A stretch of 64,000 nt of DNA from an uncultured Victivallales bacterium (lineage in GTDB: Bacteria; Verrucomicrobiota; Lentisphaeria; Victivallales; UBA1829), in the NCBI GenBank assembly GCA_934661375.1, contig CAKUJH010000011.1:24795-88794 (forward strand), written 5' to 3'. The notes under the pieces are model-generated. The model worked only from the letters and a program-made list of their open reading frames with translations, was not told the origin of the DNA and did not search any database. Numbering within the stretch: position 1 is the stretch's first letter; each line of letters starts with the position of its first letter. Below are positions 21,901-54,361 of this stretch, one piece after another. The translations under genes and the position numbers were made by a program.

Positions 21901-24900
21901 CCGCGGTGATCCTGCCGGAGCCGTAAAGCTGCTGCGGAGTTTTGCCGCAGAAAAAAATCTGTCCCGTGGAATTCTGCTGAACCTTGCCGACCGCTGTGAA
22001 CAATACGGCGATTCCGTGACCGCACTGGAGCTGTACCGCCGGGCTGGCAGTGAAGACGCCCGGATTCGTGCCGCTATGCTGCTGGAAGGTCTGGGACGGA
22101 ATCCGGAAGCCGCAAAACTCTGGAATGAGGTGTTCCGCACTTCGGAAAATGAAATGCGCGCGCGTCAGGCGATGGAACGTCTGCTGGATTTGTCTGCCGC
22201 CGCCGGGAAACTGCCGGAAACCGCTGCCGCACTGGAACAGAAATTGAAGCAGAAGCCGTCATTGCGTCTTAAAACTTTTTATGCGCACGTGCTGTTCCGA
22301 GCCAATCGGCTGGATGAGCTGTTCCATTATCTGGATCTTCAGGAAAAAAACGGTGAAACCGGACTTGCCGGGCTGAAACTTTCTTTCCTGCTGTCGGCAC
22401 GCCGGTACAAAGAAGCGTCAGCTCTGCTGGAACAGAAAAAAACGGCGGATCCGGAAAAACGCGCGGAAATACTGCGTCATCAGGTTCTGATTGCCGTTGA
22501 AGCCGGTGACAAGACTTTGGCACACCGGGCAGCGGATGAGCTGCTGCGCATTGCGCCCCGCCGTGCCGACGCGCTGGAATTTGCCGCCGGGGTATATTCT
22601 CTGCTGAATGAGCCGGCGAAAGCGGTGGAAATGTATGATGAGTGCCTGAAAGAAAATCCGTCGCGGATTGAATTGTATCTGCTTCGCGCCAAAGCGCAGA
22701 AGGCTGCCGGAGCGGGCAGGCGGGCCCAGGCGTTTTTCGTGGAGAAACTGCGGGAACCGGTTTCCGCGGATTTCTTCGGAATTGCGGCGGACGGTCTGCT
22801 GGATCTGAATGTTCCGAAAGAAGTTCTGCGGCAAGTGCTGGCGGAAACCATGAAACGGCTCAACGCCGATCCGGAACTGCTGTTCTATTACCGTTTGGCG
22901 GAAGACCTGGCGGAGGAACTGGGCGACCGGGCGGTGTGGCGTCATCTTCAGCTGCTTCAGCTGGCTGCGGCACCGGAACGGCGCACTCTTCTGCTGCGCG
23001 GTTTATATGAGGATGCTGTGGTCTGCGGACGCCGGAAAGATTCGTTCCGTCTGGCGCGCCTGTTGTCCGGATGGAATGAAATCTATCCGCCGGAATTGTA
23101 CCGGTCATTGTCGGGTGAACTCACGGAAAACGGATTTTTCGCCGCGGCGGAACGTTGTGTCCGTCAGGCGGATGCAGCGGAAAACAGCAGCCGGCATCTG
23201 TTTGCCTTGACGCAGGTCTGTCTGGATGCCGGACGACCGGCGGATGCGGCACGGATTTGCCGGGAACTGCTGAGTCTGTCTCCGGACTCTCCGGAGTATC
23301 TGATCCGGTATGCCGAGGTTCTGGAAATATCCGGAGAATACCGCCGTGCCGGTGAACAGAATCTGCGTGCGTTGTCGCTGCTGGCGTCCCGTATGGTGCT
23401 GGATCAGGGGCAGGGCAAAGGGAGCAGCAGTGCCGTGTTTGAACGCCAGATCCGCCCGGTGATCTGCGCCTTTGCTAATCAGTTTGTTCTGTGTCCGGGG
23501 GTATTTGATGCAGAGCTTGCCGTTCTGGAAAAGACTGCCGGAGCCGCCGCCCGCCGCCGGGTGTGGAATCCTCTGCGGAAACGCATGAATGCACTGACCG
23601 GTTTGCCGGTTCCGTCTGCGGTCCGGAGGAATGCCGTGCCGGGCAGCCGTCCGGTTCCCGCTGATGTGCTGGCATACCGTCTGGCAGTTCTGCCGGAAAC
23701 GGAAGCCGTAAAGGAAGTGGAACAGACCTTCCGGAAATTATCCGCCGGACAGCGTTCTCCGTATTGGGAGCGGCTGGTTGGTTCGCTGTGTGCCGAGCCG
23801 CCGGCGCGCGTGTCGGCAGTACTGGAACGGGAATTGACCCGGCTGACTTTCCGGAATACCGGTATCCGCTGGCAGTTTTCCGCTTACGGGCTGGCATTGA
23901 AACGCAAGTATGCGGAACTGTTTCTGAAAAAGTTTCCGGAGTCTCTCCATGCCTTGTCCCTTGCCGCGCAAATCCGTTATCTGACCGGCGATCCTGCGGG
24001 AGCGCGTCTGCTGGCAGGGGAAGTGTATGAACGTTTTGCCGGACTTGTCGAAGTGAAGTTTCCGGAATACCGCGCCGGTTTGGAGCTAAACCGGATTTTT
24101 GCCGCAGCGGACAGCGAAGCGGAAAACGCCGGGAAACATGCCCGGAGCGAGTTGCAGGCTTCCGTGGAGTCGGACCGGAAACTGCTGGGCGATACTCCGG
24201 CGCGGACTTTGACCGCCGTGCTTCTGCTGAAAGGCGAAGGGAAATATGACGCTGCACTGGATGAGCTGTTCCGTCTCTGGAAAAACGGGGAACGCGGACT
24301 GGTGGTTTTCCGATTGTCGGAGGAACTGACCGTCCGCACTGGCCGTTACCGTGAATGGCTGGAACTGCTTTCCTCCTATGAAACCAAAGATGTTTCGGTT
24401 CGAGTGCTTGCCGCCCGGCGGCAGGTGCAGCTGTTCCGGGATGTGGGGGAATACCAGCGGGCGCGGCAGAGTCTGCCGATGCTGGCGGTTCCGCTTCAGA
24501 AAAGGGAACGGCTGCTGACGGAACGTTTTATGCTTTCACCGGAAAGATTTGCCGCAGGACTGCGTAGCTTCCTGATCGGCCAATGCCGTACCGGACAGTT
24601 CGTCGGTTTTTATGCGGACAGTTTCGGGACGGATGGTCTGACCGGTTACAGACTGCGCGGCGGACGGCGTGCGAATTTGCTGCCGGAACTGGCGGTGCGC
24701 GACCGTGCTTTGAATGATACTCTGGGCAGTCTGCTGCGCGGAACCCCTGTTGCGGAACGCGGATTCGCTGTACTGTTTGAAGCCTGGCGGAATACTCTGC
24801 CGGGAAACGGGAACCCGCATTCCGCCGGCACGGAAAAAACGGTTCCTGCTCTGCTGGCAATGCGGACCGTTTCCGGCGGATCTTATCATGCCGGAGAGAT

Positions 24901-46202: not shown

Positions 46203-46228
46203 CAACCTCAAAATGAAAGGATATAAAA

Positions 46229-47167
46229 ATGAACAGCAAATTCTTTGGCGCAGTCATTCTGGGCTGCGCTCTCTCGGCATCGGCACTGGCACAGATTCAA
46301 CTGGAATTCAATCAGAAAAGCAAAATCCTGCCGCTGAAAAAAACAACCGGAGAACTGACTTTCTCCGCCCGTTTCGACAAGGATCAGCGCGACTGCTGGT
46401 ACTGGATCAATTTTCTCAAAGCGGACGGCAAACCGGCGATTTCCGTGCGCATTGACCCGGACAAACTGATTTATTACACAGCGGAAAAGAAGGACGGTCC
46501 GTTCGCCGCCAGCACCGCTTATTCCTATAAAAATCCGCTGAAAATGCGGGAGTATATGAATGTAACGGTCAAAGCAATTGACGGACGTTTCTATCAGACT
46601 TCCATCAACGGACAGGATTTGCCGAATGTTACTGCGGGCAGCGGAGACATCACCGGCGTTCAGCTTGCCGCCCATAACTGCAAAATCACTTACGATAAAC
46701 TGAAATGGACCGAACAGGAAAGCCTTCCGCTGAACCTGCAGCTTTTCGGCAACACCGGTATTCACAGTCAGAAGTATCTGGAACTGCCGAAAGGTGATTT
46801 CGAGCTGAGCTTCCGTTTTCGGGCGGAATTCCGCGGCGGAGACCGGACGCATTACGGAGTCGAAATCGAACCTGCCGACGGCAATATGCAGGAACGGGTT
46901 CAGCTGGTTTTCTGGGACAACGGTTTCCAGATGATTCAGGGCAAAAACAGCAAATGGCTCGGCAATTTCAACAAAGAGGAATTCAACGGGAAAGAACATG
47001 AATTCCGGCTCAAACGCAGCGACGCCGATTTCTACGAAGTCCATATTGACGGCAAGCTGGTCAACAATTTTGAAGCGCTTGTTCCCGCGGACAGCCAGTT
47101 CAAATTCTGGTCCTACGGCAAATGGTTCGTGGAACTGAACGGCATTACGCTGAAATCTGAAAAATAA
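46229..47167 (+). CDS. Secreted beta-sandwich (ConA/lectin-like) hypothetical protein
   Basis: Signal peptide MNSKFFGAVILGCALSASALA. Beta-rich composition. Family uncertain. Confidence 0.5.
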   Translation: MNSKFFGAVILGCALSASALAQIQLEFNQKSKILPLKKTTGELTFSARFDKDQRDCWYWINFLKADGKPAISVRIDPDKLIYYTAEKKDGPFAASTAYSYKNPLKMREYMNVTVKAIDGRFYQTSINGQDLPNVTAGSGDITGVQLAAHNCKITYDKLKWTEQESLPLNLQLFGNTGIHSQKYLELPKGDFELSFRFRAEFRGGDRTHYGVEIEPADGNMQERVQLVFWDNGFQMIQGKNSKWLGNFNKEEFNGKEHEFRLKRSDADFYEVHIDGKLVNNFEALVPADSQFKFWSYGKWFVELNGITLKSEK

Positions 47168-47179
47168 ACCGGAGCCGCC

Positions 47180-50100
47180 ATGAAGAAACTCCTTTTTACT
47201 CTGACTGTTCCGCTGCTGCCGGTATTCGGTATGCAGGCCGCTGAAATCCCGGACTTTCATCTGTCTTTTGACAATACGGCGGATGCCCGTCTGCCGCAGA
47301 AAACGGAATCTCCGGAAGTAAAAGGGAGATTGGTTTATGTTCCCGGCATACGCGGTCAGGCTCTGGAAATCACGGATGCACTCCAGACTGTTCTGTGTTA
47401 TCCGTCCAATGGTCTGATCGGCGAAAAAGGCACGATCTCCATGTGGGTGAAGCCTTACTGGAACGGACTGCCGGAAACCAGTCATTACTATCTGTTTCAA
47501 ACGCAGAAGGACAACGGACAAAAAGATTTCCGGTTCTGGTTCTGGACCTGGCTGCGCGGAGATGTGCCGCTGAAAAACGGCGGCGGCATCATCGAACTCA
47601 AAGGCGGAACCCGCGACAGTGTCACCAGAAACGACTGGCTGCATGTCGCAATGGTCTGGAACCGCCGCAACTGGTCGAAAATCTATGTCAACGGGGAAGA
47701 AGTCGCCGCCAGCCGGTTCACCGGCATTGACCTGGAAATGATCCGCCGTTTTTCCATCGGCAGCGCAATTTCCGGAGAAGGCAGATTCAACGGTGCCGTC
47801 GACGAAGTCAAGATTTTCAGAAAACCGCTGTCCAGCCGGGAAATCCGCGCGGAATACCGTTCCAGCGCATTGTTTGACCTGACCATGGACGAAACATTCG
47901 TCAATTCCGGAAAAAACATTGTTCTGGAAGTTTCCGCGGCACCTCAGGGAACCCGGACGGGCAATGCGCTGGATAAAGACACGGAAAAATCCGCTTCCGC
48001 GGCTATGTCCATGCTGCTTTTCGATTCTGCGGAAAAATGTATCGGCCAGCAGGATTTCGGCACGATCCGGCTTCACGGTCCGCAGACTCTTCCGTTCCAG
48101 GCCGGAACTCTTGCGCCGGGACATTACCGGCTCGAAGTTTCCATGCGGGACGGAGACCGCTCCATTGTCCGCACCTTCAAAATTTCCGTGACGGATGTAA
48201 AACCCGAAAACGCCCCGGACGGACCAATTGTCTGCGGGGAATCGTTTTTCCGGAAACAGTATGATTCGCTTCTGGGCAGTGAAATCACCGGAACCCTGAA
48301 CGGCAGGAAATACCGGGAAGCTGCGTCGGAAAAAATGAGCCGCATTTACTGTGAAGTTCCCATCCCGGAACAATACCGGAACGGGGAGCTGCTGATGCTG
48401 GAACTGGAATGGCCGGACGACAAACCGCGCATGGCGGCATTTTATCTGCACTCCGGCAAAGGCTCGCAATCCATCATACGGGACCGTCTGGGGCAGGGGC
48501 TTATTTCCGGCGGAGCATATCCGCTTTCCGGAAAAATGCAGAAAGTCCGTTACTTCTTTTATGCCGGACTGCCCGAATATCTTTTCGAAGCCAGGACCAT
48601 GGCTACCGGCAAGCCTGCCGCCATCGCCTCCATCCGTCTGAGCCGGGTGAAGGAACCTTTGCCTGCGCTGAAAATCAATCTGCCGCCCAATATGCGCGGA
48701 CGCTCCATCGGGCATCTGGACGAGGATCAGTCCTTCGAATACAATCTGGACTGGGACAACACCCGCCCGAAAATGTCCCGGCTGGATGTCGAAACAAAAT
48801 TTCTCCGCAAGCTCTGCGAATACTTTGCCTACACGGGACAGAACTATTTTTCGCTTCCGCTGCTGCGCTATGATTTCACCGCATACGAGCGGACTACGGT
48901 TCCCGGATTCCGCGGCAACATTCCGTTCATGCCCGGCTCCATTCCCTTCTGGATGAAGAGTCTGCATGAAAACGGCATTGAGTTTACCGCCATCATCAAT
49001 CTGTGGGCTCCTCCGGAAATGACTCTCCCCGATCAGAAAAGCCGCTTCATACTGGAAAATTATTATTCCAGGGACAAGGACGGGGCAGTGCTGGAAAAAT
49101 CCTGCAATCCGCTGCATCCGGAAGTCCGGAAACTGCTGGAACGCAATATCGAAGACTTTGCCAGCCGCTTCGCCGCCCGGAAGGGATTGACCGGAATTGA
49201 TCTCTGGCTGGAATGGGACAGCTTCGGTTTCCGCAATCTTGATAACGGCTATGATGATGAAAGTGTCGGGCGTTTCAGCCGCGAAACCGGTCTGAAGATT
49301 CCGGCTTTTGCGGAGCAGAAATATCAGCGGCGTCATCAGTTCCTTACCACTGGCGAAAACCGGAAACGCTGGGTTGCCTGGCGTGCGGAACAGACCACGC
49401 AGCAGATCCGCCGGGTCCGGGAAATCATCAACCGGTACAATCCCGCTCTGCCGCTGTATGTTACAGTTTCCGGATTCCCGATGCGGGGCGATCAGGCAGC
49501 CCGGACGCCCGATACCGTGGATTTCCGCAAAAACATTCTCGAAGAACAGTGTCTGGATATAGATGCGGTGAATGCCATTCCGAATGTTTATGTTACGCCG
49601 ATGCGGTTCTGCACGGATCAGTACTGGATTGAACACTGGTCCGGCGGCTATGCCTCCACCGAAGAACTTCTGCTGAATCCGGCGGTGTCCGCCATATTCA
49701 GAAATCCCCGCGGAAATTATGTCAGCAGTTATCGGGAATATTTTGAAACATTCAGCAAATCTCCGCTCGAAAGTAAATTTCCGGCGTATTTTCAGAATGC
49801 CGACCTGAAACCCCATGGACGCTTCTTCCTGAAGGAACTGGCTTACAGTCTTGCCATGACCGATGCCCAGCGAATCGCTTTCGGTGCACAGCCGCTTGCA
49901 GCTCTCGGCTTTGAGGAACTGGTCCGCGAATTTGTCCGCGCCTACCGCGCATTGCCGGACCGTCCGTTTCAGGACGCTGCCGGAGCCGGCGACCCGGTTA
50001 CAGTCCGCTTCCTGCAAACGGAAAACGGAACATATCTGTATGCTGTAAACCTGATTCATTGTCCCGGCGAGGTGATTCTGCAGCTGCCCGGCGCATCCGG

Positions 50101-50968
50101 GGCGGAAGATCTTTCATCCGGACAGAAGCTCCCGGTTCAGAATGGACGGCTGACTGTTTCCCTGAAACCGTTTGAACTCCGTTCCTTCCTGATTCCGGGC
50201 AAGACAGTTCCTGCTCTGGAAAAAGTTCTGGTGCCGCAGGATTTCCGGAATGAGACGGAAAAGCGTTTCAAGGATTTCGAATACGCCGAACGCGAACTTG
50301 CCGCCGCCGGAATCCGCGACAAAGCATTGAAAGACTGCATGGAAAAATGTCGGAAAGCATATTCGGAAGGCCGTTTCGCGGAACTGTACCGTCTGTTCAA
50401 CAGCAAACTGATGGGGGAACTGAGTCAGAAAATCAGTATGCTGAAAAACGGTTTTCTTTCCCGTGAAGTCCGGATGCTGGAAGAATCACATTTTGCTGTC
50501 AACTGCGGCAGTTCTGAATATCTGCTGAGCGGAGACACGCTGTTTCTGCCGGATATGAAATGGGAAGATGGGACCACGAACTACGGCTACACCGGCAAAG
50601 GAACGCTGGTAGCCCGCAATACGGAAAAAATGCCGGAATCTCCTCTGCGTCCCCTGTTTCAGACAGAACGCTATGACATCAGCGGATATCGTTTCAAGGT
50701 TAAAGACGGCAAATACACTCTGAAAGCCAGTATGCGGGTCGGGTATGAACCGGCACGGAAAAACGGCATTTTTGTAGTGGATGCCGCCGTGAACGGAAAA
50801 ACCGTGGAAAAGGCGTTTGACCTGTTTCAGCGGGAAGGGAAATACGGTTATGCCCAGATCATTGTCCGGGACATCAGACCGCAGAACGGAATTATCTCGT
50901 TTGAGCTGACAACCCAGGAAAGCTCCACTGTGCGTCTGCTGAACGCCATCGAAATAATTCCGCAGTGA
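47180..50968 (+). CDS. Large secreted protein (1262 aa) with N-terminal LamG/ConA-like lectin domain
   Basis: Signal peptide. LamG-like segment (ISMWVKPYWNG...WLHVAMVWNRRNWSKIYVNGEEVAASRF...GAVDEVKIFRKPLSSREI). The remainder is unassigned. Confidence 0.6.
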   Translation: MKKLLFTLTVPLLPVFGMQAAEIPDFHLSFDNTADARLPQKTESPEVKGRLVYVPGIRGQALEITDALQTVLCYPSNGLIGEKGTISMWVKPYWNGLPETSHYYLFQTQKDNGQKDFRFWFWTWLRGDVPLKNGGGIIELKGGTRDSVTRNDWLHVAMVWNRRNWSKIYVNGEEVAASRFTGIDLEMIRRFSIGSAISGEGRFNGAVDEVKIFRKPLSSREIRAEYRSSALFDLTMDETFVNSGKNIVLEVSAAPQGTRTGNALDKDTEKSASAAMSMLLFDSAEKCIGQQDFGTIRLHGPQTLPFQAGTLAPGHYRLEVSMRDGDRSIVRTFKISVTDVKPENAPDGPIVCGESFFRKQYDSLLGSEITGTLNGRKYREAASEKMSRIYCEVPIPEQYRNGELLMLELEWPDDKPRMAAFYLHSGKGSQSIIRDRLGQGLISGGAYPLSGKMQKVRYFFYAGLPEYLFEARTMATGKPAAIASIRLSRVKEPLPALKINLPPNMRGRSIGHLDEDQSFEYNLDWDNTRPKMSRLDVETKFLRKLCEYFAYTGQNYFSLPLLRYDFTAYERTTVPGFRGNIPFMPGSIPFWMKSLHENGIEFTAIINLWAPPEMTLPDQKSRFILENYYSRDKDGAVLEKSCNPLHPEVRKLLERNIEDFASRFAARKGLTGIDLWLEWDSFGFRNLDNGYDDESVGRFSRETGLKIPAFAEQKYQRRHQFLTTGENRKRWVAWRAEQTTQQIRRVREIINRYNPALPLYVTVSGFPMRGDQAARTPDTVDFRKNILEEQCLDIDAVNAIPNVYVTPMRFCTDQYWIEHWSGGYASTEELLLNPAVSAIFRNPRGNYVSSYREYFETFSKSPLESKFPAYFQNADLKPHGRFFLKELAYSLAMTDAQRIAFGAQPLAALGFEELVREFVRAYRALPDRPFQDAAGAGDPVTVRFLQTENGTYLYAVNLIHCPGEVILQLPGASGAEDLSSGQKLPVQNGRLTVSLKPFELRSFLIPGKTVPALEKVLVPQDFRNETEKRFKDFEYAERELAAAGIRDKALKDCMEKCRKAYSEGRFAELYRLFNSKLMGELSQKISMLKNGFLSREVRMLEESHFAVNCGSSEYLLSGDTLFLPDMKWEDGTTNYGYTGKGTLVARNTEKMPESPLRPLFQTERYDISGYRFKVKDGKYTLKASMRVGYEPARKNGIFVVDAAVNGKTVEKAFDLFQREGKYGYAQIIVRDIRPQNGIISFELTTQESSTVRLLNAIEIIPQ

Positions 50969-50984
50969 AATATTGATACTCCGG

Positions 50985-51036
50985 AAAGCACAGCCGGCTG
51001 TCTCCCGACGGAGGTTCAGCGGGGCTGTGCTTTTTT
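50985..51036. terminator. Candidate bidirectional terminator hairpin (AAGCACAGCC...GGCTGTGCTT followed by a T-run) overlapping the 3' end of the ftsB-like gene
   Basis: 10-bp perfect inverted repeat with a T6 tail on the + strand. Coordinates approximate. Confidence 0.45.
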
Positions 51037-51330
51037 ATCGGCAGGCGTTCTGTAAATCAGAACTTCTTCGCCTTCCCGGCAGTACTTGAACTTTTCCCGC
51101 GCGATCCGTTCCGCCGCCAAGGCGCTGTGTTCAAGGTCATGCACCTCAAGAATCAAAGAACGGCATTCTTCCTGCGCCTGCCGCAATTCCTGCTCCAGAT
51201 CAGAGACTTTGCGCTGCATGTCTGTGTATTTGCGGTAAACCGGCATCACCAGAATTACCGCAAATCCCAGAAAAACAGCCAGGAGGATATACAGCGAACC
51301 GGAAAGCATTTTCTGAACTTTACTGCCCAT
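51016..51330 (-). CDS. ftsB: Septum formation initiator family protein (FtsB/DivIC-like)
   Basis: 104 aa. An N-terminal TM helix followed by a coiled coil (DLEQELRQAQEECRSLILEVHDLEHS...). GGAGA RBS. Confidence 0.6.
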   Translation of the reverse strand: MGSKVQKMLSGSLYILLAVFLGFAVILVMPVYRKYTDMQRKVSDLEQELRQAQEECRSLILEVHDLEHSALAAERIAREKFKYCREGEEVLIYRTPADKKAQPR

Positions 51331-51399: not shown

Positions 51400-53517
51400 T
51401 TACACCTGAAGGGTCATCAGGAATTCGGCGTTGGTTTTCATTTTCTTCAGCTTGCCGATCAGCAGCTCCATCGCTTCCACCGGCGGCACACCGTTCATCG
51501 CCTTGCGGAGAGTCCAGACACGCTGGAGTTCATCCGGATGCAGGAGCAGTTCCTCTTTACGGGTACCGCTGCGCTCGATGTTGATGGCAGGATAGACACG
51601 GCGGTCGACCAGATAACGGTCAAGGTGCAGTTCCATGTTGCCGGTGCCTTTGAACTCTTCAAAGATGACTTCGTCCATACGGCTGCCGGTGTCGATCAGC
51701 GCGGTGGCGATGATGGTCAGACTTCCTTTGCCGTCGATATTGCGGGCTGCGCCGAAGAAACGTTTCGGTTTGTGCAGTGCGTTGGCGTCCACACCGCCGG
51801 TGAGAATCTTGCCGCTGTGCGGCTGAAGGGTGTTGTAGGCGCGGGCAAGACGCGTAATGGAGTCCAGCAGGATCACTACATCTTTGCCGTATTCCACCAT
51901 GCGTTTGGCTTTTTCGATCACCATTTCGGCAACCTGAACATGGCGTTCCGGCGGTTCGTCGAAAGTGGAGCTGACCACTTCCGCTTTGACCGAACGCTGC
52001 ATGTCCGTAACTTCTTCCGGGCGTTCGTCAATCAGCAGAATGATGAGTTCCACATCCGGATTGTTTTTGCTGATGGCGTTTGCCATTTTCTGCATCAGAA
52101 CCGTTTTACCGGTACGCGGCGGCGCTACAATCAGACCGCGCTGTCCCATACCGATCGGCGTCACCAGGTCGACCACACGGGTGGACAGTTCTTCCGGAGA
52201 ATTTTCCAGAATCAGACGCTGTGTCGGAAAGTACGGAGTCAGATCACTGAACGGAATGATGGTGCGTTTGCGGTCCGGAGACTCGTGGTTGATGGTTTCC
52301 ACTTTGAGCATGGCGAAGAAACGCTCTTTTTCGCGCGGAGGACGGATCTGTCCCGTAATGAAGTCGCCGGTCTTGACCGAGAAACGCCGGATCTGCGACG
52401 GACTCAGGTAAATATCTTCCGATGAGGGCAGGTAGCTGTACGCGGGGGAACGCAGAAAACCGAAACCGTCCGGCAGAATTTCCAGGAATCCGCTGCCGTA
52501 CATGATGCCGTTGCGTTCGGCATTGACCCGCAGAATTTCAAACACCAGTTTGGATTTTTCCAGCGCACCGACACCTTCAATGCCCATTTCACGCGCCATC
52601 ACGCTCAATCTTTCCATCGACATTTCCTGAAGTTCGGAAATGTTCACGCTGGGAACCGGAGTTTTGGGCGCATTGGGATCAGCCGGAACTGCCGGAGCCT
52701 GCGCTGCATTCTCCATCGGCTGAACCGGCTGCTGCATCTGCGGCTGCGGACGCGAAAGCTGGGAATAATTGTTGTTGGAATTGTATTCCTGGCTGTAATC
52801 ATTGCCGTAGCCGTAGGAATTCCGGTTGTAATCGTTCTGGTAGTTCCCGTGGTTCTGACGGCTGCCGTTCTGGTTGTTGTGGTAGAAGCGGCGCTGTCCG
52901 TCCAGATAATCGTCATCATACCGGTTGTTGTTCTGCGGCTGATAACGGCGGCGCTGATTGTTGTTATTGTTGTTATTATTGTTGTTGCCGCGGCGGTTGT
53001 TGTAATCCTGACGCTGCTGCATCCGGTCGCCGTTGCGGCGCTGATTGTTGTTCTGCATCCGCTGCTGCATCATGGGGTTGCGGCGCTGCTGAACCGGCGC
53101 ACTTTCCGTATCCCGGTAATTGTCATAATCATCGGTGTCCGTCGGGATCGGGGCGGCAGGTTCGGTGTAGGTCGCACTGATGGGTTCCGGAGCAGGGACA
53201 TAGCCGTCGTCGTCATCTTCCGGCGGACCGAAGGAAACGGCATTGACGGGTTCTGTCGGAACAACCAGCAGGTCCGGCTGGGCGTTGGCGAAGTATTCCG
53301 GTTCTTCTGCTTCCGATTTTTTCGGTGCCGGTGCCGGAGCCGGAGCAGAAGCCGGGGCAGAAACCTGAACAGCCGGTGCGGGTTCCGCCGGACGCTGACG
53401 CGGCGGACGTCCGCGTCTTTTCGGTGCCGGAGCCGGAGCTGCGGCTTCTGCGGGTTGAGCGGGAACCGGATTGTTTTCCGGTGCGGGAACGGATGACAAG
53501 TTGTTTTCCTGATCCAT
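51400..53517 (-). CDS. rho: Transcription termination factor Rho with ~285-aa N-terminal low-complexity (Pro/Ala then Asn/Gln/Arg/Tyr-rich) extension
   Basis: Rho core: [19 protein letters not shown] Walker A, RNA-binding CSD, and the C-terminal RecA-like domain. The N-terminal extension includes an N9 homopolymer. AGGAGA RBS. Confidence 0.9.
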
Positions 53518-53537
53518 CGGGTTGTTTCTCCTGTTTT

Positions 53538-54143
53538 TTATTTATTGAAAAACTGTTTGATTTCCTGATCCAGCCGGCGGCATTGTTCGCGCAGCATATC
53601 GAGCGAGCCTCGGTTGATGATTCCGTAATCCGCCAATTCCAGTTTCCGGGCGGCGGAAAATTGTGCAGACATGCGTTCCTCCGCATGTTCACGTGTCCAG
53701 TTCCGGGACAGCAGACGCGTCATCTGTATTTCCGGCGGCGACCAGACGGCAATCGTTTTATCCATGTGCGGACTCCATTTGGTTTCGAACAGCAGCGGAA
53801 CTTCCACCAGCACAAACCTGGCTTCTAAACGGACTGCCTGGTCTTCCAGACGCCGCAGAATTTCCGGGTGCAGAACGGAATTGAGCCACTGGCGTTCCGT
53901 CTCATCGCCGAAAACTTTTTCCGCAATGAACTTGCGATCCGGCAGTGCATCCGCACCGATCACCGCTCGACCCCAGCGTTCCTCCAGCAAATGTGTGAAC
54001 AGCGAATCCGCTTCCGAGTAAATCTCGTGGCAAATCCGGTCTGCATCCAGACAATGCCAATCCTGAAACGTGCTGAAAATCCTGCCGACTTCCGATTTGC
54101 CGCATCCCGGTCCGCCGGTCAGACCTATCCGTATGAAACTCAA
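53538..54143 (-). CDS. coaE: Dephospho-CoA kinase
   Basis: [15 protein letters not shown]-loop at the N-terminus. A probable TTG start with AGGAGA RBS gives ~201 aa; the longer ATG-initiated ORF (to 54248) is less likely. Confidence 0.8.
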
Positions 54144-54361
54144 AAAATATCTCCTGAAAATTCCGTTATCATTTTTCCTTGTGAACAAAATCCGGAAACA
54201 GTTCATACTGCGCTGATTGCCATTCTGGGGAAAAATGCCGTTTCGCAAAAAAATTATGGAAAACGGATAAAATCATGCAAATGATACTGTACTTTATCAC
54301 TTTTTGCGCTATATTCAAGTGTAAATTCATTTTTTTTTGGCAGGAAAGGAATATTTTCAGC

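Follow-up and report, generated by a model that had tools for sequence, protein, structure and literature searches.

Does the rho gene of an uncultured Victivallales bacterium encode a transcription terminator with a genuine N-terminal extension of 291 amino acids (aa), and if so, is that extension a prion domain or a tail of another kind? The question is raised by a gene on the reverse strand of contig CAKUJH010000011.1 (GenBank assembly GCA_934661375.1), within a stretch of 64,000 nt (contig positions 24,795 to 88,794) that we call the window. A first-pass annotation of the window had described the product as Rho carrying a low-complexity extension of about 285 aa. We find that the open reading frame (ORF) at 51400-53517 encodes the housekeeping Rho terminator of this uncultured Lentisphaeria (Victivallaceae-like) organism and that its translation begins with the ATG at 53517. 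We are highly confident that this bona fide Rho bears a translated, selected and disordered N-terminal tail of the recently catalogued Type 2a. The gene and the main parts of its product are as follows (pLDDT, predicted local distance difference test score of the AlphaFold2 model).

51400 to 53517, reverse strand: rho gene, an ATG-initiated ORF of 705 codons plus stop, encoding a 705-aa Rho
53528 to 53532, reverse strand: AGGAG Shine-Dalgarno sequence, read from the sequence, 10 nt upstream of the ATG at 53517
52645 to 53517, reverse strand: disordered N-terminal extension ('initial region'), aa 1-291, with no Pfam match and AlphaFold2 pLDDT 32-46
52507 to 52635, reverse strand: Rho_N helix bundle, aa 295-337 (Pfam PF07498, E = 5e-9; AlphaFold2 pLDDT 72-89)
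52273 to 52494, reverse strand: Rho RNA-binding domain Rho_RNA_bind, an oligonucleotide/oligosaccharide-binding (OB) fold, aa 342-415 (Pfam PF07497, E = 1e-30)
51568 to 52182, reverse strand: RecA-type ATPase domain, aa 446-650 (Pfam PF00006, ATP-synt_ab, E = 2e-26), with the Walker A sequence PPRTGKT

The folded part of the protein has the domains of Rho in their usual order, namely Rho_N, the OB-fold with its canonical GFGF ribonucleoprotein motif 1 (DGFGFLR in the translation) and the RecA-type ATPase with Walker A and Walker B motifs. Residues 292-703 align with profile positions 2-413 of 415 of TIGR00767, the Rho equivalog model of NCBIfam, at 684.7 bits (cutoff 509.45), and NF006886 matches with 670.1 against a cutoff of 315. 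Nearly all residues of the ATPase domain are invariant among 61 homologs. According to the Pfam and TIGR00767 boundaries, 291-294 residues lie ahead of Rho_N. The first-pass annotation had thus judged the extension well, with 291 aa found before a complete core, and its placement of the canonical N-terminal helix near residue 290 agrees with a helix sequence that starts at residue 293. Rho_N ends at aa 337 and Rho_RNA_bind begins at aa 342. This gap of 4 aa contains no insertion, and the extra sequence is therefore an N-terminal addition rather than an inter-domain insertion. We rejected the presence of a rho paralog within the window, since tblastn with the core matched a single locus and revealed no second rho copy in the 64 kb.

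To follow the extension across relatives, we used the 120 nearest clusters (core identity 79-100%) from a collection of 5.8 billion proteins. Of these, 112 have extensions that measure 220 aa or more, with a length that varies from about 227 to 461 aa; the shorter entries are incomplete gene calls or fragments on short contigs. Within the species (24 clusters, 91-100% identity), every length difference is an in-frame insertion or deletion (indel) restricted to a Pro/Ala tract at the N-terminus, with near-identical strains differing by QPAEA, APAVQVS or AP, and the Asn/Gln-rich half is almost invariant. A run of ten Asn in that half is kept in proteins P0001-P0020 and is reduced to 6-8 Asn in the group that is 93% identical.

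We then estimated the ratio of nonsynonymous to synonymous substitutions (dN/dS) by the Nei-Gojobori method against two relatives, L081 (93% identical) and L082 (80% identical). For the extension the ratio is 0.14 against L081 and 0.25 against L082, compared with 0.014 and 0.024, respectively, for the core. Within the tail, the lowest values (0.07-0.09) belong to an acidic, motif-bearing block at aa 76-135. The Asn/Gln region has 0.08-0.19, and the Pro/Ala tract at aa 1-75 is the least constrained with 0.25-0.48. The ATG of rho lies 20 nt past the stop of the upstream gene coaE, and both the N-terminal sequence M[DE].EN.. and the Shine-Dalgarno sequence are conserved. No internal ATG, GTG or TTG before residue 301 is preceded by a Shine-Dalgarno-like sequence, and M301 already sits inside helix 1 of Rho_N. 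Because the frame is open in 112 of the 120 clusters, the indels are in frame, dN/dS is low and the ATG has its Shine-Dalgarno sequence, we conclude that the extension is translated and, judging from these comparisons, under purifying selection. The first-pass annotation had named two outcomes that would overturn its reading, an internal start and an extension missing or not conserved among relatives, and these data speak against both.

The tail itself is divided into segments of distinct composition.

53293 to 53517, reverse strand: Pro/Ala-rich tract, aa 1-75 (Pro 25%, Ala 24%)
53398 to 53433, reverse strand: AT-hook-like basic motif (A), aa 29-40, from an alignment of 36 diverse homologs
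53257 to 53286, reverse strand: conserved short motif B, aa 78-87, consensus [QR][PA]D.[LI][VI]V, from alignments
53167 to 53241, reverse strand: conserved acidic motif C, aa 93-117, core Y.P.PEP[IV].A, from alignments
52732 to 53112, reverse strand: Asn/Gln/Arg/Tyr-rich prion-like low-complexity region, aa 136-262, from composition
52957 to 52986, reverse strand: Asn10 run, aa 178-187, between RRG and QRRR
52873 to 52923, reverse strand: conserved motif D, aa 199-215, within the low-complexity region, YDDDY.D.QRR[FY][FY]HNN
52645 to 52731, reverse strand: Pro/Ala/Gln linker, aa 263-291, ending in the P.PS[VL]NI junction (E) to Rho_N

The acidic block at aa 76-135 has a net charge of -12. The following region, aa 136-262, contains 26% Asn, 17% Gln, 14% Arg, 9% Tyr and no Lys, with 10% aromatic residues and a charged fraction of 0.23. 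Asn and Gln together make up 43% of these 127 aa, an enrichment over the core composition with binomial P = 3e-19 for Asn and 3e-11 for Gln. Lys is at 0-4% in every segment of the tail, and the part that is not prion-like is Pro/Ala-rich and acidic. The composition bears out the first-pass annotation, which had placed an Asn/Gln/Tyr/Arg-rich stretch at residues ~120-270, with the correction that its run of nine Asn is a run of ten. The codons of this run (AAC AAC AAT AAT AAC AAC AAT AAC AAC AAT) mix AAC and AAT, and the run is thus not a pure slippage repeat. Two elements had escaped the first-pass annotation, namely the acidic motif-bearing middle block and the AT-hook-like sequence KRRGRPPR.

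No Pfam family matches the tail even at E<=10. In an AlphaFold2 model built on a 61-sequence alignment, aa 1-292 are without secondary structure (pLDDT 32-46), in a model that is weak overall (mean pLDDT 49, with the core partly poor) since the alignment is shallow and too similar in the core. We also considered a general Asn/Gln bias of the genome and rejected it for the 64-kb window, in which no other real protein has a comparable Asn/Gln tract; three other six-frame ORFs of the window barely reach a threshold of 30% Asn/Gln, with sequences that look like out-of-frame translations. Taken together, the tail is a modular polyampholyte in which a Pro/Ala spacer with a basic motif is followed by an acidic block, a net-positive Asn/Gln region, a Pro/Ala linker and the junction to Rho_N.

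This organisation corresponds to a known class. A survey of 2,730 genomes by Moreira, Chyou, Wade & Brown (NAR 2024, PMC11347177) defined as Rho Type 2a those proteins that have an 'initial region' of more than 25 aa before the N-terminal domain. Of the Rho sequences surveyed, 18.7% have such a region, the longest being 352 aa, and about half of the Rho proteins of the Planctomycetes-Verrucomicrobia-Chlamydiae (PVC) group have initial or 2d regions (PMC11347177). Initial regions contain APA motifs, central QN motifs and RxR motifs, sit near the primary RNA-binding site and are predicted to be disordered, droplet-forming and sometimes prion-like; in Xanthomonas oryzae Rho, an initial region adds 214 aa, 95 of which form a QN-rich segment predicted to be prion-like (PMC11347177).

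The Lentisphaeria tail shares with Type 2a its location before Rho_N (291-294 aa) and the predicted disorder. An insertion longer than 25 aa after Rho_N, the feature that sets 2b and 2c apart from 2a, is absent, the gap to the RNA-binding domain being 4 aa. The order of an Ala/Pro-rich part followed by a Gln/Asn-rich part, with Arg-rich elements, is also the same, and Lentisphaerota are related to the PVC group, in which the class is frequent. APA-, QN-like and RRR/RxR strings are obvious in the tail by eye, an assessment made independently of the published MEME/MAST models. The 291 aa of the tail approach the reported maximum of 352 aa. The tail fits Type 2a in position, predicted disorder and order of composition, and its N-terminal placement, which the first-pass annotation had correctly distinguished from an internal insertion and contrasted with the Rho domains of Clostridium, is not a new arrangement. 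Lentisphaerae are not named in the main text of that survey, and the literature that we searched contained no work on Lentisphaerae Rho. The Lentisphaeria lineage differs from the survey in one respect: whereas no alignable conservation was found between distant species (PMC11347177), this lineage has alignable short motifs, including KRRGRPP[RK] and QRR[FY][FY]HNN.

An Arg-Gly-Arg-Pro core with basic flanks is the signature of the AT-hook (SMART SM00384 / Pfam PF02178), and motif A contains such a core with its flanks in the sequence P-K-R-R-G-R-P-P-R at aa 32-40. The part KRRGRPPR at aa 33-40 has the consensus KRRGRPP[RK]. Among the 36 diverse homologs motif A has about 80% column identity, with R37 invariant (alignment A1), and 87 of the 112 full-length clusters have [RK]GRP among their first 80 residues, compared with 0.45% of shuffled extensions. 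The curated AT-hook profile gave no match in Pfam for the tail or for a 25-aa peptide at E<=10, a negative of little weight since very short models rarely pass the HMMER filters. Most of the clusters listed without [RK]GRP carry another basic patch there, PRERKTRAKA. They include a sub-lineage (P0047-P0059) whose proteins start with MEKSTP[RK]ERKTRAKA at the same position and keep motifs B, C and D. This substitution hints that positive charge, and not AT-hook geometry as such, may be what matters at this position.

The other motifs are similarly maintained. Motif B is present in 85 of the 112 clusters, with its D and V invariant or nearly so (alignment A2). Motif C consists of an acidic run followed by Y.P.PEP[IV].A and holds 6 invariant positions even in homologs with only 21-30% identity across the block. 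In motif D, RR followed by an aromatic residue is found in 98 of the 112 clusters, and at junction E, P289 and I293 are invariant in alignment A1. Conservation extends to the charge of the blocks: all 36 diverse homologs have a net negative charge in the block corresponding to aa 76-135 (mean -11), and 34 of the 36 (94%) have a net positive one in the Asn/Gln region (mean +6). In the 100-aa window richest in Asn and Gln, the means over the 112 clusters are 47% Asn+Gln, 15% Arg, 0% Lys and 9% aromatic residues.

We then examined how far these features extend beyond the immediate relatives. An exhaustive search of 1.84 billion representative proteins with a profile of motifs B and C (A2) gave 7 matches: one full-length Rho representative, four N-terminal Rho fragments, one fragment that looks chimeric or frameshifted and one spurious repeat protein. 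We therefore rejected the idea that B and C form a module common to other protein families; confined as it is to Rho or Rho fragments, the module is private to this Rho lineage. A homolog search with aa 25-135 of the tail was uninformative, as it returned four short fragments and was swamped by Pro/Ala-rich word matches. The named relatives are metagenome-assembled genomes of Lentisphaerae, Lentisphaeria and Victivallaceae, the best among the matches listed, from Victivallaceae and Lentisphaeria, having 73-83% core identity.

A broader screen covered 80 Rho loci, one genome per species, with the tail measured from the farthest in-frame ATG upstream of the core. Extensions of ~260-290 aa with RGRP were found only in Lentisphaeria-type loci, and a longer tail of 437 aa, rich in Pro and Ala but lacking RGRP, belongs to one Verrucomicrobiota locus. 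The other PVC loci (Verrucomicrobiota, Planctomycetota, Kiritimatiellia and Chlamydiota) mostly have shorter tails of 30-180 aa, many with a basic patch and then acidic sequence, and most non-PVC loci are essentially tail-less, with some upstream ORF extensions of up to ~180 aa. In many Rho genes of Verrucomicrobiota and Planctomycetota (PVC-group loci L007, L008, L021, L035, L046 and L058), the shorter tail appears to open with a Lys/Arg-rich patch and then to turn acidic; examples of the patch, again counted from the farthest in-frame ATG, are MPRPKKAAPP, MPPKKKVASKARK and MAKTITKTGKATAKKRKTSKKK. A basic-then-acidic N-terminal tail may thus be a general theme of the PVC group, of which the Lentisphaeria version with its AT-hook-like motif would be one form.

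What could such a tail do? We propose a model in which the tail would emerge on the outer rim of the hexamer, beside the primary site of RNA binding, and six tails would thus surround the RNA entry path. KRRGRPP[RK] and the many Arg residues, present in six copies per hexamer, would provide additional multivalent contacts to nucleic acid. Arg and Tyr are the residue pair that governs phase separation of FUS-family proteins, and in the Lentisphaeria tail Arg/Tyr 'stickers' spaced by Asn/Gln could mediate self-association. The acidic block may fold back on the basic parts as an autoinhibitory partner, a state that RNA or a signal would open. The outcome would be a broadened or retuned choice of RNA loading sites, together with a reversible, RNA-dependent condensation that changes termination activity under particular conditions. 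By analogy with other Rho proteins, we give about even chances to the tail working through nucleic-acid binding and condensation. The explanation as a whole, a Type 2a Rho tail acting by this mechanism, is the one that we favour, by a modest measure of confidence.

The nearest functional counterpart is the Rho of Bacteroides thetaiotaomicron (BtRho), whose disordered region is reportedly also treated by Krypotou et al. in Science in 2023. Both BtRho and the Lentisphaeria protein are essential Rho proteins of the kind found in gut anaerobes that carry a large disordered region in which composition, rather than sequence or length, is conserved, with a few short charge-dense motifs of both signs. 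In both, an Asn/Gln prion-like subdomain with a conserved positive motif adjoins the folded N-terminal part. The BtRho region is made up of subdomains with conserved composition, one of them prion-like and rich in Asn/Gln, and contains five conserved motifs that are short and dense in charge; it drives RNA-dependent coacervation with autoinhibition within the region and control by guanosine tetraphosphate (ppGpp) (EMBO J 2026, PMC13269538). Condensation of this type raises termination activity, under the control of ppGpp or starvation. The Lentisphaeria tail has this pattern of composition and motifs and differs in two of the features that characterise BtRho. First, the region of BtRho is inserted after Rho_N and separates it from the RNA-binding domain, whereas the Lentisphaeria tail precedes Rho_N. 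Second, the driver subdomain of BtRho is rich in Lys and Glu, whereas the Lentisphaeria tail is almost without Lys and its remainder is Pro/Ala-rich and acidic. The two regions share no sequence homology, and condensation and ppGpp control have been demonstrated for BtRho only.

A second comparison is with the Rho proteins of Mycobacterium tuberculosis, M. smegmatis and Micrococcus luteus, which likewise have Arg-rich disordered regions adjoining the primary RNA-binding site. Those regions raise RNA affinity, set the choice of Rho utilization (Rut) sites and support droplets (PMC13650167; bioRxiv 10.1101/2025.08.28.672908). The disordered insertion of M. tuberculosis Rho increases the number of selectable Rut sites from 47 to 1,759 and sets Rut-site selection genome-wide (PMC13650167), and the additional regions of mycobacterial Rho are both necessary and sufficient for droplets (bioRxiv 10.1101/2025.08.28.672908). 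M. tuberculosis Rho also has a short initial region of 35 aa. Its main region differs from the Lentisphaeria tail in being an insertion after Rho_N and in being tied to high-GC genomes, while the window has ~55% GC.

Several considerations weigh against the nucleic-acid-binding and condensation model. The mechanism proposed for the Lentisphaeria Rho rests on analogy with other Rho proteins, and the experimental cases concern either an insertion after Rho_N (BtRho, Clostridium botulinum) or an insertion combined with a short initial region (mycobacteria). The Lys/Glu-rich subdomain that drives condensation of BtRho is absent from the Lentisphaeria tail. The AlphaFold2 result for the tail is consistent with disorder without proving it and discriminates weakly, and the AT-hook assignment comes from the motif only. 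Finally, motifs B and C could serve to dock a partner protein instead of acting in autoinhibition.

This last point leads to the best-surviving of the other explanations, in which the tail would mainly be a docking platform: a partner protein, for example RNA polymerase, NusG/NusA or a regulator, would attach to motifs B and C (QPDLLVVP ... Y.P.PEPI.A), and the low-complexity parts would be no more than flexible spacers. The block that contains B and C has the lowest dN/dS of the tail (0.07-0.09), both motifs hold invariant residues across very divergent homologs, and their combination of hydrophobic and Pro-rich positions is typical of peptide-docking motifs. The partner, however, is hypothetical, and the confinement of the B and C pair to this Rho lineage among the 1.84 billion representatives provides no evidence for a shared module. 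Docking also leaves the conserved Asn/Gln/Arg/Tyr composition and the conserved signs of the charge blocks without explanation. Docking is compatible with the nucleic-acid-binding and condensation model rather than exclusive of it; as the main role of the tail, we regard it as unlikely.

A bolder extension of the preferred model would combine these elements in a three-part regulatory switch of a kind not yet described for Rho, in which a genuine AT-hook would tie the hexamer to structured RNA or to AT-rich DNA, the Arg/Tyr-Asn/Gln region would drive condensation, and the acidic block with its docking motifs would restrain both until a signal or partner arrives. We consider this quite unlikely. 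If true, certain transcripts or parts of the chromosome would recruit Rho in the form of a condensate. Bolder still would be a true heritable prion at the extreme N-terminus.

The prion explanation can also be taken on its own. The first-pass annotation had likened the extension to the prion-forming Rho of Clostridium and suggested PLAAC-type scoring. In this explanation, the Asn/Gln region would be a heritable amyloid switch that sequesters Rho and causes genome-wide read-through, as in C. botulinum, whose Rho prion is said to have been described by Yuan & Hochschild in Science in 2017. We implemented an approximate PLAAC-type score with a foreground built from two yeast prion domains, Sup35N and Ure2N. 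The best 60-aa window, starting at aa 141 (~141-200), reaches +58.5 bits with this home-made score, compared with -28 for the core. The value lies between those of Ure2 and Sup35, and 111 of 112 homologs exceed 20 bits on the same scale. The region is therefore, by the home-made score, a disordered Asn/Gln-rich stretch of at least 60 aa with a positive log-likelihood ratio, and composition-based tools can be expected from its sequence to call it prion-like. In this respect, and in its 43% Asn+Gln over 127 aa with the Asn10 run, it resembles the Asn-rich N-terminal low-complexity segment of C. botulinum Rho, which is likewise flagged by composition-based prion predictors (Pallarès et al. 2016, PMC4703818). 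Rho prion-like domains moreover recur in at least 8 phyla (Harrison 2019, PMC6400439).

Beyond composition, the likeness does not hold. A PAPA-type scan, also approximate and run without a FoldIndex filter, peaks at 0.011 at residue 235, below the threshold of 0.05, whereas Sup35N (0.10) and Ure2N (0.117) pass in the same script. The low charge and long uncharged core of a prion domain are both absent: the charged fraction of aa 136-262 is 0.23 compared with 0.06-0.11 in yeast prion domains, and the longest stretch without charge or proline is 12 aa (the Asn run itself) compared with 24-26 aa. The C. botulinum segment, which is an insertion after Rho_N, has an almost uncharged amyloid core of 21 aa that is ~90% Asn/Ser and passes both PAPA and pWALTZ (PMC4703818), whereas the Lentisphaeria segment is 23% charged and is interrupted by charge or Pro at least every 12 aa. 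The conservation of Arg at 14-15% across the lineage suggests selection for solubility or RNA contact and not for amyloid, and a test of B. fragilis Rho, a protein with QN motifs, showed no aggregation (quoted in PMC11347177). We therefore consider a true prion domain improbable, and the prion analogy less likely to hold than the analogy with condensates and RNA binding. Of the two suggestions made in the first-pass annotation, phase separation and aggregation, the former appears by the same analogies to be the better one.

Equally improbable, in our assessment, is that KRRGRPP[RK] is a functional AT-hook that tethers Rho to AT-rich DNA of the nucleoid, for example in foreign-DNA silencing or R-loop surveillance. 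AT-hooks are known from HMGA-type proteins, and AT-hook-like RGR motifs occur in bacterial proteins, e.g. in the linkers of H-NS and Lsr2. The Lentisphaeria motif shares with these the Arg-Gly-Arg-Pro core, the Lys/Arg and Pro flanks and the disordered context; it is ~170-fold enriched over shuffled controls and conserved in position near residue 35. Unlike them, it stands on an RNA helicase, and Pfam gives no match to it. It is present in one copy per chain, whereas classical AT-hook proteins usually have several, although a hexamer would still present six. The replacement of the motif by PRERKTRAKA in one homolog group suggests that generic positive charge suffices, and AT-hook-type motifs bind RNA as well. 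No paper linking an AT-hook to Rho was found in the literature searched.

We find it more improbable still that the tail is a low-complexity expansion with little function, an 'entropic bristle' or solubility spacer that is tolerated and persists only because its loss brings no advantage. The tail does evolve ~10 times faster than the core, its length ranges from ~227 to 461 aa with a Pro/Ala tract that is polymorphic within the species, and additional Rho regions have arisen independently many times (PMC11347177). Nevertheless, dN/dS is well below 1 in every segment, the motif islands, charge signs and Arg-not-Lys composition are kept down to 79% core identity, and none of the 112 full-length clusters has lost the tail.

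Last, translation from an internal start near V291, M299 or M301, which would remove the extension from the protein and which the first-pass annotation had named as an outcome that would overturn its reading, is rejected as having next to no probability: M301 has an AGGA 7 nt upstream and V291 (GTG) aligns with what we take to be Met1 of E. coli Rho, but V291 lacks a Shine-Dalgarno sequence, a start at M301 would cut helix 1 of Rho_N, and an 873-nt stop-free region is kept in frame in more than 100 diverged clusters with a conserved N-terminus and dN/dS of 0.14-0.25. A minor short isoform from an internal start may exist alongside the full-length protein.

The surroundings of rho are conserved as well. 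In all three relatives compared (L081, L082 and L083), a divergently oriented NUDIX gene is followed by CoaE, Rho and DivIC on the rho strand. Immediately upstream in the window, at 53538-54248 on the reverse strand, the gene for dephospho-CoA kinase (CoaE) appears as a mechanical ORF of 236 aa from a TTG. The CoaE gene calls in the three relatives are 199-201 aa long, and coaE in the window thus probably starts inside this ORF, near 54143. Only 20 nt separate the coaE stop from the start of rho, a spacing that suggests co-transcription of the two genes. Directly downstream of rho, at 51016-51330 on the reverse strand, lies a gene whose 104-aa product, a coiled-coil protein anchored in the membrane, belongs to the DivIC/FtsB family of septum formation (Pfam PF04977 on homologs).

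Further along the window, a stop-free ORF of 1,283 aa at 46208-50059 on the reverse strand runs antisense to a real gene for a 1,262-aa protein with LamG, GHL10 and Malectin domains (47180-50968, forward strand). The in-register antisense frame of that gene contains 2 stops compared with ~45 in the other frames, and the same frame in L081 (93% identical) contains 4 compared with ~30. We rejected this ORF as a conserved gene and attribute it to the avoidance of TTA, CTA and TCA codons, which leaves a shadow ORF.

Rho delimits transcription units and keeps foreign and antisense RNA silent, so that altered loading or activity of the protein rewires the whole transcriptome. In Bacteroides and mycobacteria, disordered additions to Rho decide which RNAs are terminated, permit condensation under stress and affect fitness in the gut. 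The tail described here opens no new category, as it belongs to a recently catalogued class of Rho; what is new are the details specific to the lineage, namely the conserved AT-hook-like motif, the two motifs of the acidic block and charge blocks whose signs are conserved. This uncultured Lentisphaeria (Victivallaceae-like) lineage thus has its own version of a disordered Rho region, independently built, placed at the N-terminus and held under purifying selection, and this tail offers a convenient natural comparison in which the position of the region, its charge pattern and its Arg/Tyr content can be set against one another.

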